This document shows positions 11,333 through 61,536 of a stretch of 64,000 bases of DNA, one piece after another. The stretch is from Isurus oxyrinchus. Lineage: Eukaryota. Both the position numbers and the translations under genes were made by a program. The stretch covers positions 868,001 to 932,000 of the forward strand of contig JANJGN010000119.1 in assembly GCA_026770705.1 (NCBI GenBank), in the 5' to 3' direction. Positions within the stretch are counted from its first letter, which is position 1, and the number at the start of each line of letters is the position of its first letter. A model generated the notes under the pieces. That model had not been told where the DNA came from. It worked only from the letters and a program-made list of their open reading frames with translations, and ran no database searches.

Positions 11333-11543
11333 GAAAGAGACAAGCACCATTTAAATTGTTGAAACCTGCTTATAAATTGGTTTCTACATTTGGCGTGTGA
11401 CTATTACTTGTTTGTAAAGTGCATATCGTTATGCCGTGACATTACTCAGTCAGTATCCTGAAATATTTATGTTGTTTTATTTAATTGTCGATTTATAACA
11501 ATGATCTATTCTCAACTCGCAGATTAACTGATATATCAGCTAA

Positions 11544-11770
11544 AAACAGAGAACTGATGATGCTGCAAATCCAAAGCAAAAACAGAATCACCTGGAAAAA
11601 CTCAGCAGGTCGGGTAGCATCGGTGGAGAAGAAAAGAGTTGACGTTTCGAGTCCTCATGACCCTTCAGGTTCTGCTGAAGGGTCACGAGGACTCGAAATG
11701 TCAACTCTTTTCTTCTGCGCTGGTGCTGCCACACCTGCTGAGTTTTTCCACGTAATTCTGTTTTTGTTTT
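11544..11770. mobile_element. Fold-back (inverted pLTR) Penelope mini-insertion in the GPCR intron
   Basis: Inverted arms centred at ~11668, both homologous to the Penelope 3' end at 61396-61535. Flanked by TGATATAT(C/G)AGCTAA at 11529-11543 and 11770-11784 (TSD, 1 mismatch). Confidence 0.88.
11668..11706 (+). ncRNA. Minimal type I hammerhead ribozyme-like motif (variant core, slightly decayed)
   Basis: GGTT-CTGCTGA-A-GGGTC(ACGAG)GACTC-GAAATGTC-AACT: stems I and II pair, A6 is C, and stem III has a C>T change. Confidence 0.55.
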
Positions 11771-13500: not shown

Positions 13501-13812
13501 AGTCGGCGTCAAATGAAGTGAATCCTGGAAACCCCGTTAAATCAAATGTTGCCAAAGACACTATCTGTTGAAATGGCCAGAATATTTTCCCAGGAGCATT
13601 TTCCACCCCTTGTCCTGCCGGAGATTAATCTGGAGGTGAATGGATTCGAGTATGGCTGGGAGATGGGTTGTGATTTCATTAACTCATAGCACCTTAAAAT
13701 ATACCAAATCACCCTTATGATGTAATCATGCTGTATGATGTAGTCAACCTCGACTAAAACACGGAGACTTTGGTCTGTCATTTACAATCTATTTTAATTT
13801 TCTCTCTTACAG

Positions 13813-14723
13813 TTAATTTAGTGACGATTTTGATCCTGTCCAGGGGAAAGTGCGGCCTATCCACTTGCACAACAAGGTACCTGGTAGCAATGGCAGCGGC
13901 GGATTTACTTGTAATTATTACTGATGCCATATTGTATCAGATACGTGATTATTATTTCCCTGGTTCTTTCCTGGACATCACTCCGTTATGTAGTGTTATC
14001 TTTGCCCTGATTTCTGCAGCCACAGATTGTTCTGTCTGGTTCACCGTCACTTTTTCCTTGGATCGATTTGTCACAATCTGTTGCCAAAAGTTTAGATCTA
14101 AATATTGCACGGAGAAAACAGCAATTGTGGTTTTATCAACAACTTGTGTTGTGTTCTGTTTAAGAAACGTTCCATTTTGCTTTATATATGAACCTAGAGA
14201 GATAATCGGCAATGTACCCTGGTACTGCCATGATATGCCAAGCTATTATACAGATCCAGGGTGGGTGGGCTTTGACTGGTTTCATAAAGTTTTAACACCA
14301 TTGCTCCCATTCACTTTGATTCTTTTGCTTAATGTTCTGACAGTCAGGCATATTTTAGTGGCCAGTCGAGTCCGTAAGAGATTGAGGGGTCAGAGCAAGG
14401 GAAAAGGCCAAAATGACCCAGAAATGGAAAGCAGAAGGAAGTCGATGATCTTACTATTCACAATATCCGGCAACTTCATGCTGTTGTGGTTGACACATGT
14501 GGTAGATTTTTTATATTATAACATTACAGGAACAGATCCCAATAGTTACAACGATTCTTTATACATTTTTCGGCAAGTAGGATTTATGCTGCGAGATGTA
14601 AGTTGTTGCACAAACACATTCATTTATGCAGTGACACAATCCAAATTCAGAGAACAGTTCAAAAGGGCGGGAACATATCCTGTTAGGTCAATTATGCAAC
14701 TAATAAATACACCGAGAGACTGA
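13813..14723 (+). CDS. GPR139/GPR142-like class A (rhodopsin-family) GPCR, coding exon 2 (end of TM1 to TM7 and C-tail)
   Basis: Uninterrupted ORF with hydrophobic helices and class A motifs: AAADLLV (TM2), SVWFTVTFSLDRFVTIC (TM3, DRF), PLLPFTLILLLN (TM5), FMLLWL (TM6), CCTNTFIY (TM7) and SKFREQ (helix 8). A strong acceptor TTTTCTCTCTTACAG ends at 13812, and the stop is TGA at 14721-14723. Confidence 0.93.
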
Positions 14724-25454: not shown

Positions 25455-25572
25455 ACAAAAACATAGTTACCTGGAAAAACTCATCAGGTCTGCTGCCAGA
25501 TCTGCTGAGTTTTTCCAGGTAATTCTGTTTTTGTTTTGGATTTCCAGCATCCGCAGTTTTTTAATTTTTATT
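25455..25572. mobile_element. Ultra-short fold-back Penelope insertion with TSD
   Basis: TTACCTGGAAAAACTCATCAGGTCTG / CAGATCTGCTGAGTTTTTCCAGGTAA inverted arms plus tail. TTAAAGTTT(C/G)ATT occurs at 25442-25454 and 25573-25585. Confidence 0.85.
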
Positions 25573-28560: not shown

Positions 28561-28569
28561 GATAGATAA

Positions 28570-30810
28570 AGAAAGCAAAATGCGCTGATGATGGAAATCG
28601 GAAATGATAAGAGAAAATGCTGGGAAAAGACTGCAGATCTGGCAGCATCTCTGGAGGGAGAAACATAATTAAACTTTCGAGTCCGTATGACCCTTCTTTG
28701 TACATAAGAGGAGGGGAAATGTGTTGGATTTTAAGTTGTTGAAGAGCTGGTGGAGCAGGTGGAGCAAGAATGAAAGTCAGGGTTTGGTGACAGCTAAGGA
28801 GAAATTGACAGAAATGACACAGACACAAGACATAATGAGTGTTAAAAGTAGTGGAAAACACTAAATAAGGTGTTGGTTGTCGCATTTAAGTAAGACCAGA
28901 ACGTGTTAATGGCAAAGCAAGGGTCAGAGCTCTGTGAAATCACAACATGAAGACAAGTGATAGGTGGCACAATGGGCTTGGGGGTGAGGGTCACTGGATG
29001 TGGTGGGATGCGTAAAATGGCTAAAAAATAGATTAATACATTTTTAAACAAAACAAATAAAAGTTAAAATGTTGGAAAAAAGAAAGAAATGTATAAAAAA
29101 GACGTAAAGATGGATGACAAAGGTATGGTCTAAAGTTATTGACCTCAAATTTAATTCTGGAAGACTGAAAAGCTGCTGATCGGAAAGTGTGGTTTTGTCT
29201 GTTCAGGTTCCATTGTGCTTCGCCAGAACTTTGAAGCAGGCCGAGAATGTAGAACTGTGATGAGACCAAGGTCGTGTGTTGAAAGACAAACGGCAGAAAG
29301 TTATGTGTCATGCACATGAAATGAGCCAAGGCATTATGCAAATCGGTCACCAATTGTGCGTTTAATCTCCCCAAAGTAGAGAAGACCACTTTTCTAGCAG
29401 CGAATACAGTTGTCCAAATTGAAGGAGGAGCTGGTGAAGCGCTCCTTCACCTGAAGGGAATTCTTGAGGTTGTGTATTAAGAAGAGAAATGAGCTAAATG
29501 GGCTGGATTTGCATTTTCTGTGATTGCATGGGAAGATGCTCTGGGAAGGGGATAATGTTTCAGGAGTGATGGAGGACTGGACCAGGTTGTCACCGTGCCA
29601 ATGTTGGCGAGAGGGCGGGGGGATGGGGTGGGATGGTGAGGGAAAGACATGCTTAGTGCTGGTATTGTGATAGAGGAGGCCGAAACGCTATCAAATAAAA
29701 TATCAAACCTGATGGGGTGACAAGTGAGGACAACGAGGGCCCTTATATGCTTCCGGCAAGGAGGGGTAATAGTGAAGGCAGAGTTGGGGGAGATGAGTCA
29801 GAAATGGTTGATGACACTTTCAACCATCGTGATGTAAACATTGGTTAAGGAATAAGGAAGGCATGAGGCAAGCGCCATTATGGAAGGCAGAATCATTGGA
29901 ACAGATGCAGTGGAATTGGTAGAACTGAGAGAACGGAATGTAGCCCCTGCAGGAAGTAGGATGTCAGCGGCTATAGTTGAGGTACCTGTGGAAGTCATTG
30001 GACTTGAAATGAATGTTGGTGGACATCTTATCACCAGGAATTGAAACAGAGAGGTCAAAGATGGGAAGGAAAATGTCACAGCTGGGCGACGTGAAGGTGA
30101 GACAGGGATGTAAATTGGAAGCAAAATCCATCTTCTTTTTCCAGATCCTGCTCCGACTTCCATTATTACCCAATGGAAACTGGAGGAACAACATCACATC
30201 TTCCAATTAGGCACGTTACAGCCTCGCGGATGTAACAATGATTTTGACCTCCTCCACCTTGACCAACTTTCAAAAATCGAACTTTTATTTACCTATTGAA
30301 TTAATTTTTGTATTTTTTGGCAGCATAATTTTTATTTTTTCATGTCATTTTTGTTCAGTTTTAATTCTTTTTTGCAGCCTCCCTGCCCCAAAGAGCCTTC
30401 TCTTGTTTCTATGTAATTCTTTCACAGAGCACTGAACCTATTCTGCTCTTAACAGCTTCACCTTTTGTACCTTTATGCCAAACCCAGCACAGTCTTTACT
30501 CTTTCACATTTTCATTAACACTCCATTTGTCTCACGTCCATTAAATCAAATCACTTTGTCTTTCTCTGGCATCAATCTCTTCTCAGCAGTCACCTGTCCC
30601 TGAACCTCTACCTTGCTCCACCTGCCCCATCCCCTATTTAACTGTAGCAACTCGATCACATTTCTATTTACCTTTCGCTCTTAAGGAGAGTCAGCAGTAT
30701 TCAAAATGTTAACTTTCTTCTCCTTTCCACAGATACTGCCAAAACTGTTGTGTATTTCCAGCATTTTCTGTTTTTATTTCAGATTTCCTGCATCCACAGT
30801 ATTTTGCAAT
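28570..30810. mobile_element. Penelope-like retroelement with inverted arms (RT C-terminus + GIY-YIG on -, inverted 3' copy on +)
   Basis: The - strand has IFDLSVSIPGDKMSTNIHFKSNDFHRYLNYS (PLE RT thumb, ORF 29964-30206) and a frameshifted GIY-YIG region (LYFGEIKRTIGDRFA at ~29340-29385). The + strand from ~30170 repeats KLEEQHHIFQLGTLQPRG and ends in the pLTR tail at ~30810. Confidence 0.85.
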
Positions 30811-47636: not shown

Positions 47637-47848
47637 GTTGAACAATGGAATTAACCCGATTGGAAGCAATAGGGTTTTTTTTTTTCGAAGATCATAAAAC
47701 CAACCGATCATGCATCATTAAAGTAGCTTGGATTTATAGAACAACGGCAAATTGAGCTGCCGATAACAATAATAGTTAAACCTAAAGCAAAAACAGAATT
47801 ACCTGGCAAAAACTCAACAGGTCTGGCAGCATCGGCGGAGAAGAAAAG

Positions 47849-47887
47849 AGTTGACGTTTCGAGTCCTCATGACCCTTCGACAGAACT
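47849..47887 (-). ncRNA. Minimal type I hammerhead ribozyme motif (A6 replaced by U)
   Basis: - strand AGTT-CTGTCGA-A-GGGTC(ATGAG)GACTC-GAAACGTC-AACT: stems I and II fully paired, palindromic ACGT stem III, GUC cleavage triplet. Confidence 0.7.
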
Positions 47888-47902
47888 TCGACAGAACTTT
47901 GA

Positions 47903-47941
47903 AGTTCTGTCGAAGGGTAATGAGGATTCGAAACGTCAACT
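47903..47941 (+). ncRNA. Minimal type I hammerhead ribozyme motif (A6 replaced by U, stem II weakened)
   Basis: AGTT-CTGTCGA-A-GGGTA(ATGAG)GATTC-GAAACGTC-AACT. Confidence 0.6.
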
Positions 47942-49619
47942 CTTTTCTTCTCCGCCGATGCTGCCAGACCTGCTGAGTTTTTCCAGGTAATTCTGTTTTT
48001 GTTTTGGATTTCCAGCATCCGCAGTTTTTTGTTTTTATCTCTATAGTTAAACCTAACCTAGGTTGGAAAGGTTATTTTAAGCAGGACGGAATGCTATCTG
48101 CTTCTAGACCGACAGCCGCAGTTTATCTGGTCCAATATTGAGATTTCAACTTCTGGCAACATATGACGTCGAATCGATCAAAATTGAAAGTGACAGTTAA
48201 CCAAGCAGTACAGTCTGTGGGTGCAAGAAACAAGATGTAGCGAACACTGCACACGCGTAATTTTCAGGAAATTGAGCGGGACACAATAATCATTGATTCG
48301 GTTTACCATAACCCCTGAAATAATGATGAGGGCTTCTGTTGGTGCCATGACCACAGCGTAGCAAGTATCGCTGGTGGAGAGGCGGCACTTTCCATAGGAC
48401 AAGATCAATTGACGGAGATGGGCGGTTACTGAAGAACTCTTTCCGTTTCTGAGTCCAGGTAGATTGGATTTTAGCTGCACGAATTTGGTAGCAAGTCAGT
48501 GGTTAGGCTTAACTCGACCGTGACTTCAGCCAGCATCCAAACCAGGTGTAACAAATATGTTTCTGAGCCAAGCAGCAGATTACTTCCAGGAGCCAGGTTG
48601 ACATCTTAAATGTTGTTCACGAGTAACCAAAATGGGTATACTGGACATTGTTATGTGATCTCCACCAACTCTCAGTGTAAGGACTCATTCCAGTTTGGGA
48701 TCTCAGCCTTCTGCATGAAACTCACCATTCAGGTGTGAGCAATGCCCTCATACAGGAGACTCACATTTATCTCAGACCACTACACGTAATTTGGGTACCG
48801 GAGCTAAAGATGTATCACATTATTATGTATAGAAGGGTATTAATGGAGTTGGTGCACATGCGATTAGAAAGCAGGCATTCAGTTCAACTGGAAGATCACT
48901 AAAAGAACTAAAACATATTTTTGTTTATAGAATGGAGGTAATAGCGAATTTCACACATATGTTAGTTTCTGGCCGATCATAACAGAATCACAACTCCATG
49001 TATCAGCTGCCGACATTCTGTCCAAAGGTAATACAGAAACAAACAGATTAGCATTGTGGAAATTGTTATGCCTCTATCCTGTGGATAAGAGTATGCTTAT
49101 GGGGTATTGAATGGAGGCCATTAAATTAACAGAGGCTAATGAGGATAGGATAGTTGTGACACATGTGTGTGTGTCCAATTCTCATTCACCTCAATACAGG
49201 ACAGTCGGCCTGAGACAGTGAATTGAGTATGAGGGAAACAGGAATCGAAGATTATACTGATAGTCCCCGATGACTTGCAGAAGAGTAAGGTTTGTCTCCA
49301 CCAGGAAGAATGGCTGAGCCTCGTTTCTGTGCTGTAAAACCTGCAATTGGGTATTAGCTAATTATAATCATAACGGAAATATTATTCATTAAAACATTAT
49401 TCTAATTTCCCAGTGGCTCTTGGGACTGTGTATGGCGATGGAGATTATTCAGCACCCAGAATCATCGTCATCAGCTCTACTTACAGCAAGTGTAATATGA
49501 TGCCCCGCATTGAATACATTTATACAATGACAGGTCCCACAGGAAAAACATGGTCGTATTTGACAGGTGCAGCACTGCATTAAATGTCCACAAAGGCATT
49601 ATGGATTTTTATTTTCATC

Positions 49620-60574: not shown

Positions 60575-61536
60575 TTCTGTCCTCCTACTCCTCAACCCCA
60601 ACCTATGGCAGCTCCCCATGCTCACGCAAAAGATGCAATACCTGCCCCTTCAATTCCTCTCTCCTCACAGTCCAAGGTCCAAACACTCCTTTCAAGTGAA
60701 ACAGCATTTCACTTGCATTTCCCCTAACTTAGTCTACTGCATTCGTCGCTCCCAATGCAGTTTCCTGTACATTGGAGAGACCAAACGTAAACTGGGCAAC
60801 CGCTTTGCAGAACACCTGTGGTCTGTCTGCAAGAAAGACCCAAAGCTCCCTGCCACTTGCCATTTTAACACTCCACTCTGCTCTCTTGCCCACATCTCTT
60901 TCCTTCGCTGGCTGCATTGTTGCAGTGAAGCGCGACGCAAACTGGAGGAACAGCACTTCATCTTCTGACTAGGCACTTCACAGACTTCTGGACTGAATAT
61001 TGAATTCACCAACTTTAGATCTTGAAATCCCTCCTTCATGCCCAGTCACATTACGATTCTTCCCCCTTCCTTTAGTTTTTTTCCAATAATTTATATAGAT
61101 TTTTATTTTCCCCACTATTTCCAATATTATTAAATCTATACCTTTGATGCCCTGTGAGTCTTTCCACCCCACCTCCCCTCGAGATGTACAGGGTGTCCCG
61201 CCATCCATTCTTTGTTAGCACATTCGTTTGGAAATTATCACCACTTCTCTTTGTTCTTTTATCTGCGACATCTTTTGATTATCTGCTCCTAATACTGCTT
61301 GCATGTCCTTCCAATCACCCCCCGCCCCCGCTTCTCTCCCCGCCACTCCCCCACCTTAAACCAGCTTATATGTCACCCCTCTCTTATTTTTACTTAGTTC
61401 TGCTGAAGGGTCATGAGGACTTGAAACGTCAACTCTTTTTTTCTTAGCGATGCTGCCAGACCTGCAGAGTTTTTCAAGGTATTCTGTTTCTTGTTTTGGA
61501 TTTCCAGCATCCGCAGTTTTTTTTTGTTTTTATTTC
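60575..61536 (+). mobile_element. Penelope-like retroelement family 1, 5'-truncated (GIY-YIG endonuclease + 3' UTR + pLTR)
   Basis: PCSRKRCNTCP, then FTCISPNLVYCIRRSQCSFLYIGETKRKLGNRFAEH...RKLEEQHFIF*LGT...GLN (GIY-YIG). The 3' end matches the fold-back mini-elements. Confidence 0.92.
61396..61434 (+). ncRNA. Minimal type I hammerhead ribozyme motif in the Penelope pLTR (A6 replaced by C)
   Basis: AGTT-CTGCTGA-A-GGGTC(ATGAG)GACTT-GAAACGTC-AACT, in sense orientation downstream of the GIY-YIG ORF. Confidence 0.68.

Follow-up and report, generated by a model that had tools for sequence, protein, structure and literature searches.

Uridine in place of the core residue A6 in the hammerhead motifs of a young Penelope-like element lineage of Isurus oxyrinchus

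Introduction

In the window analysed here, a stretch of 64,000 nucleotides from Isurus oxyrinchus (GenBank assembly GCA_026770705.1, contig JANJGN010000119.1, positions 868,001 to 932,000 of the forward strand), two hammerhead-like motifs lie back to back near 47.9 kb and read CUGUCGA in place of the canonical core CUGANGA. The question arises whether the loss of A6 reflects the decay of single copies or is a property of the elements from which these copies stem, and what it would mean for the ribozyme. To our knowledge, hammerheads are nearly universal in canonical Penelope-like elements (PLEs) and yet cut poorly.

Natural as well as engineered A6C hammerheads retain low activity (PMC3088659; PMC7151607), and the same reports, together with PMC9901934, describe core contacts of A6 and a low activity of position-6 mutants; the parts of these three sources covered here report no A6U variant. 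In a mutational scan of a type III hammerhead, mutants of the CUGA turn likewise showed low activity, with no rescue except by a C3-G8 swap (PMC9901934). The hammerhead of an Anolis PLE cuts only with its protein and is dispensable for insertion in vitro (PMC11167929). Known features of PLEs include their hammerheads with the extra A as well as dimers, tails and inverted copies, and an A6U hammerhead was not found in the literature searched, which lay outside Lünse et al. 2017, a study that could hold position-6 variants, and outside the bioRxiv supplements.

Results

As originally noted, A6 is absent from all four motifs of the window (4/4), namely 47849..47887 on the − strand and 47903..47941, 11668..11706 and 61396..61434 on the + strand. 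The first, a minimal type I hammerhead-like motif with the core CUGUCGA, has exactly the form of the youngest subfamily and is the only undamaged young form among the four: from 47887 to 47849 it reads AGTT, CTGTCGA, A, GGGTC, ATGAG, GACTC, GAAA, CGTC and AACT, with U6 at 47880 and the predicted cut after C17 at 47853. The second (core CUGUCGA, U6 at 47910) has a stem II damaged at 47919 and 47927. The two remaining motifs both have the core CUGCUGA. The one at 11668..11706 (C6U7) carries a U at 15.2, and its inverted partner arm (11538-11666, −) is without the first half of the core, while the one at 61396..61434, with a U at 11.1, sits in the 3' pseudo-LTR (pLTR) of a 5'-truncated element, downstream of a frameshifted remnant of the C-terminal part of the PLE open reading frame with linker and GIY-YIG (60625..61022, +; tblastn, 75-80% identity to P0001). 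The flanks of the copies at 11.7, 47.9 and 61.4 kb are unrelated, and those at 11.7 and 61.4 kb are independent copies. The window further holds a piece of a fold-back pLTR (25455..25571), which belongs to the same family and begins downstream of the hammerhead, and an older decayed relative (28564..30806) with ORF remnants inside and outward pLTR ends (28564-28696, −, and 30696-30806, +).

The back-to-back arrangement is a single head-to-head fold-back pLTR insertion of 257 bp (47786..48042), with a short arm on the − strand and a tailed arm on the + strand, flanked by the two copies of a 14-bp target-site duplication (47772..47785 and 48043..48056, both +). Its inversion junction lies at the 5' edge of the hammerhead (47888..47902) and contains an 11-nt direct repeat. 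The motif is present on both strands, but as one insertion whose arms are predicted to pair with each other in a single long hairpin of about −190 kcal/mol over 47786-48042. Since the arms are mutually antisense, we rejected the idea that they form a cleaving ribozyme dimer, and cleavage of this copy is improbable. In the 33 fold-backs from the sampled blocks and loci, either arm mostly has its end at one of the two RT start sites; 19 of the 33 combine a short with a tailed arm, as expected if each of the two target strands primes separately, and 20 have a duplication of at least 8 nt. An Rfam search of the window at E≤5 returned hairpin look-alikes only and no hammerhead family; among the former, a match to the MIR1033 microRNA precursor (RF03297) was discarded, as it scored 54.3 bits against a gathering threshold of 70 and is explained by the hairpin that the fold-back makes. 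As predicted, the motif thus escapes standard searches, being reported neither by CUGANGA descriptors nor by Rfam.

The motif is confirmed as the minimal hammerhead of the pLTR of a Penelope-like retroelement with RT, GIY-YIG and a Neptune-type linker, in agreement with the proposed PLE origin, for which an ORF with RT and GIY-YIG lies between motif-bearing pLTRs. In intact elements of 3.3 kb, both pLTRs have the CUGUCGA core: the two motifs of locus L059 are separated by 3,324 nt and enclose an open frame of 925 codons, and the tandem units at L051-L052 have open frames that span 865 and at least 828 codons. The single ORF encodes an RT with DKG and YIDD motifs and has GIY-YIG at its C-terminus; the Pfam matches (RVT_1, E 1.3e-5; GIY-YIG, E 8.8e-4) both fall slightly below the curated cut-offs. 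A CX4CxxC linker (CPRKRCNTC) is present in L051, L052 and L058, with one cysteine altered in L059; a CX2-5CxxC linker before the endonuclease is a feature of the Neptune clade and common to Nematis. Among named proteins, the greatest similarity (68% and 63% identity) is to those of a bamboo shark, Chiloscyllium punctatum, in keeping with a host that is a shark. Since intact open frames lie between variant motifs and the junction from pLTR to ORF is found in at least 3,152 copies, the variant sits in autonomous elements. The short, non-coding tandem repeats of a non-LTR retrozyme, each with its hammerhead, were not found, the tandem units observed being 3.3-kb coding ones and the short copies solo or inverted.

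The motif shares the type I order, the position in the pLTR and possibly the short helix I with the minimal hammerheads of metazoan PLEs (Cervera and De la Pena 2014; PMC4209133), as well as the extra nucleotide after A9, G10.1-C11.1, GAAA, the palindromic 15.2-16.2 and an NUH site. Here, the extra nucleotide between A9 and 10.1 is an A in all subfamily consensuses, helix II has 5 bp closed by G10.1-C11.1, and GAAA-CG-UC of the young copies corresponds to GAAA-CG-UU in older ones. The extra A noted in the window is accordingly real but was already part of the published PLE consensus. An older family has helix II as AGGTC/GACCT, which amounts to two double-sided changes. In helix I, the complementary strands AGUU/AACU stay the same from S2 to S7, although the helix is predicted at P≤0.02 in context, also in the A6 copies. 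The difference lies in the core: A6 stood in all 44 of the alignment rows examined of PMC4209133 (consensus CUGANGAH), where the core variant named in the text covered is U3-A8, whereas here CUGANGA with A6 is, apart from 138 of the 78,939 matches, found in older subfamilies. A shark row was not found in the part of that alignment examined, nor the words 'shark' and 'Callorhinchus' in the supplement searched, file 1 excepted.

A 31-nt pattern of the motif has 78,939 exact matches in the genome, compared to 0 for the reversed control, and is thus abundant far beyond chance. A6 is scarce in these counts, as only 138 matches hold A6 and 99.8% are without it; U6 occurs in about 97% (about 77,000 copies) and is the form of the young copies, and C6 in 1,655 (2.1%). 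The replacement of A6 by 'a pyrimidine' hence mainly means U6, C6 being a minor state. U6U7 accounts for 14,644 matches; the other 62,502 are mostly U6C7, by a hand count of 80 in 100 among the matches listed. The opposite-strand product of CpG decay reaches only 1,898 matches, which argues that most U6U7 copies represent a true older source state, and decay of U6C7 was rejected as their main source. C6 copies are present on several upstream backgrounds, which indicates that C6 arose or was carried more than once; by hand, 88 of 100 among the C6 matches listed are C6U7. As a side note, C6U7 (L212-L235) makes up about a tenth of the U7 class, far above the share of C6C7, and its backgrounds span S5 to S6b. 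The older GUU-site pattern has 8,585 genomic matches, and the 100 of these that were listed comprise 39 A6, 57 U6 and 4 others (hand count). In a sample of 1.2 Mb of the genome, 159 hits were obtained, 100 of them spanning the motif, with CTGTCGA in 25, CTGTTGA in 21, CTGAAGA in 18, CTGATGA in 10 and other cores in 26. The non-canonical core is therefore not family-wide, as had been proposed, but marks the younger lineage only, older subfamilies of the same genome being canonical.

The order of these states follows from a tree, with the hammerhead excluded, of those 41 of 224 anchored copies that have at least 760 nt of upstream homology; it contains a single S2 row and is rooted at the midpoint. 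It forms a ladder from S2-S4 to S7, along which end branches shrink from 0.054-0.14 (S2-S4) to 0.002-0.07 (S7, most <0.03). S2 has A6U7, S3 U6U7, S4 a change from A to G at 10.2 and S5 a loop change together with GUU to GUC, followed by S6 and by S7 with U6C7. A6U is a derived state in this phylogeny, which places it early in one master lineage, older subfamilies being canonical, with the direction judged by the shrinking end branches, the canonical cores of the more decayed families and A6 in the published rows. It is likely, judging from these sequences, that the master lineage changed A6 to U once and then kept amplifying. Two other A6 rows of the tree are nested in U6 groups, as revertants, and no subfamily that goes back to any of the 138 A6 revertants is visible. 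In contigs of the runs X1, X6 and X16 (organisms A, B and C; RNA label guessed), where A6 families may be too divergent to align, the A6 letter was not seen at ≥2% depth. As organisms B and C also carry mainly the S7a upstream letter, U6 likely predates the split of these organisms. Together, the intact elements, the copy counts and the copy tree support the recent activity proposed for this PLE family.

Six changes of the motif occurred from S3 to S7, at N7, loop position 3 (twice), loop position 4, H17 and 10.2. Five of the six fall on the 7 free sites among 38 (placement P=0.001), the sixth (10.2, A-U to G-U) retains pairing, and neither a change in the rest of the core nor a compensating core change was found after A6U. 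The 31 structural sites thus hold 1 change, where the pLTR rate, which is inflated by simple repeats, would give 9.3 (P=0.0009) and the rate of 4-fold sites of the ORF (0.136 changes per site, from 129 sites) would give 4.2; compared to the latter, the deficit does not reach significance (P=0.078, and P=0.20 for the core by itself). Equally conserved pLTR windows of the same length outside the motif number 38 of 365. This pattern is suggestive of selection on the motif that continues after A6U, be it for catalysis or for a different structural role.

In U6U7 39-mers, U4-G5-U6-U7 are predicted to pair with A14-A15.1-C15.2-G16.2 and thereby to hide the dimer palindrome. The pair N6-A15.1 of this lock has P 0.83-0.97 in 13 U6U7 39-mers, 0.12 in three U6C7/GUC 39-mers and 0.44 in one GUU copy with U6C7, and 0.00 in 10 A6 and 2 C6 39-mers. 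The 39-mer folds no better than shuffles (z=0.06). Ten copies were also folded in their natural context, with 45 nt added upstream and 25 nt downstream. Stem I was then predicted at P≤0.02 in 10/10 and stem II at ≤0.03 in the two S7 copies; every subfamily favoured other folds, and reaching the hammerhead-ready fold takes 3.6-8.3 kcal/mol. The S7 sequence that precedes stem I (L059, 7311-7335, −) has come to resemble the 3' half of the motif itself, and pairing of this stretch with the core and the 5' strand of stem II is predicted. A permuted hammerhead formed through it (GGACTCGAAATC) was set aside because the sister S7a reads GAAC there.

If cut RNA served as the template, copies should begin at A1.1. 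None of 91 copies from the 1.2-Mb sample and the window starts within −6 to +1 of the cut, while the starts of 39 of the 91 fall between −51 and −22, at the 5' edge of the motif, although the apparent 5' end of the oldest copies may stem from mismatch to the reference. This accumulation could be due to RT stopping there, to an RNA start or to splicing at an acceptor formed by the AG of stem I; the AG as a possible splice acceptor or initiator was noticed in S2-S6 and is weaker in S7. Genome-wide, two foreign bases directly before the cut were found in 298 copies, compared to controls of 276 at +2 and 120 at −4, and 18 of 20 inspected cut-edge copies are fold-backs or small deletions or substitutions. 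Among 30 copies that lead into the ORF, three of which belong to one array and two to one insertion, none starts at the cut and 25 cross it. In the A6 subfamilies, a clear signal at the cut site was not found either (236 vs 176), and most of 24 inspected A6-family loci represent deletions, fold-backs or decay. Inserted cDNAs were thus copied through the cut site, and the templates are uncut or re-ligated both before and after A6U. Since the footprint is absent in the A6 subfamilies too, its absence does not decide between an attenuated and a dead ribozyme. The 3' ends of the copies cluster at about +65 and +105, which, together with the fold-backs, matches the described PLE tail and inverted copy.

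Discussion

The source elements resemble EN+ PLEs of the Neptune/Nematis type (PMC8557442) in their C-terminal GIY-YIG, the CX4CxxC linker, the tandem and inverted pLTR structures, including inverted truncated copies, and an optional tail of 30-40 nt. With the Anolis Poseidon element PAc (PMC11167929), they share two internal RT start sites, which lead to short and tailed ends, and uncut RNA as template; in PAc, RNA-seq ends are absent at the cut site. PAc differs in that it belongs to the Penelope/Poseidon clade and in that cleavage with its protein was demonstrated. A natural position-6 pyrimidine has a precedent in the A6C hammerhead of phage Bcep176, whose CUGCUGA is the same as in the C6U7 copies described here (PMC3088659; PMC7151607). 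The phage motif, however, is a single one with full helices that was tested as active and prefers Mn2+, whereas in the present case U6 is the main state, found in about 77,000 copies whose subfamily history is recorded.

From our point of view, there is about an even chance that the motif represents a weakened, still-constrained hammerhead and that full cutting is dispensable for transposition. As A6 has changed in 99.8% of the copies, the intact elements included, cutting is likely weak and full cutting not needed for spread. One can imagine that the protein of the element binds tandem read-through RNA and that reverse transcription, with RNA that is uncut or re-ligated as its template, begins about 65 nt or about 105 nt downstream of the cut. 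Any cutting would occur between two sense-strand motifs paired via the ACGU palindrome and would be slow and probably protein-aided. The change to U would remove the core contacts of A6 and is predicted to let U4-U7 pair with A14-G16.2 and hide the palindrome, a lock whose release is predicted for two later changes, U7C and the recurrent U6C. Along the ladder, the site shifted from GUU to GUC after A6U; GUC is a better cleavage site than GUU.

Read somewhat differently, and with a low probability in our estimation, the hammerhead was tuned down: A6U would have been kept since the template or mRNA is lost when cutting is strong, and a protein-gated U6 ribozyme that is active in vivo would have been readjusted afterwards by U7C, the recurrent U6C and the shift of the site from GUU to GUC. 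If so, no active A6U hammerhead would precede this one, and an ordered natural series of alleles for testing it is present in the genome. We regard it as rather improbable that the variant is fully active, with U6 tolerated or compensated in the dimer or in the protein-bound state and re-ligated circles as templates. Such circles would give the 25/30 ORF-leading copies that cross the cut as well as the tandem units, but read-through tandem RNA accounts for the same copies; protein-assisted cleavage is known for one PLE (PMC11167929) and GUU became GUC after A6U, yet A6C strongly lowers the activity in Mg2+ in the two hammerheads described in PMC7151607, and a compensating core change is not seen.

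A catalytically dead relic is less probable than the weakened hammerhead, but a serious competitor: A6U would have ended cleavage, and the 39 nt would persist through slow change or another function in the pLTR, for which a protein-binding hairpin, a promoter or a 5'-end signal could be imagined within this same reading. The missing cut-site footprint fits such a relic, but the canonical A6 subfamilies are likewise without an evident footprint (236 vs 176). The predicted closed rod of U6U7 also fits, and yet U7C breaks a pair of the rod and would be disfavoured if the rod were selected. Other pLTR blocks are equally conserved and the test against 4-fold sites is not significant, but the changes after A6U spare all 13 unpaired or palindrome core sites, five of them falling on free sites. 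In addition, the 39/91 copies that start at the 5' edge of the motif hint at a non-catalytic role, Naiad PLEs amplify without hammerheads, and hammerheads may parasitize PLEs, as suggested in PMC8557442, which also describes Naiad. The possibility of decay or conversion after insertion or of an assembly artefact, in contrast, has practically no probability left. Private changes in three of the four window motifs would speak for it, but the genome counts (A6 absent in 99.8% of 78,939) and the intact elements with U6 in both pLTRs refute it, and the contigs of the three coded organisms are without A6 at ≥2% depth. The original prediction was thus right in assigning the variant to the source elements.

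A lineage has lost an invariant core base and then made about 77,000 copies, and one genome preserves the motif in seven alleles that succeeded each other before and after A6U. If the variant is active, the hammerhead consensus widens and searches for CUGANGA miss very large families; if it is inactive, it provides genomic evidence for PLE transposition without cleavage, with the motif preserved for another job.

Three further observations were made. In run X9, a coral metatranscriptome, 0.49 of the sampled element words were found, for which carry-over or contamination is the simplest reading. Repeats of the window spaced about 10 kb apart suggest tandem duplications. Lastly, the window contains an intronless frame of 321 codons for a receptor of the rhodopsin family (13758-14720, +; 7tm_1, E 1.6e-20).
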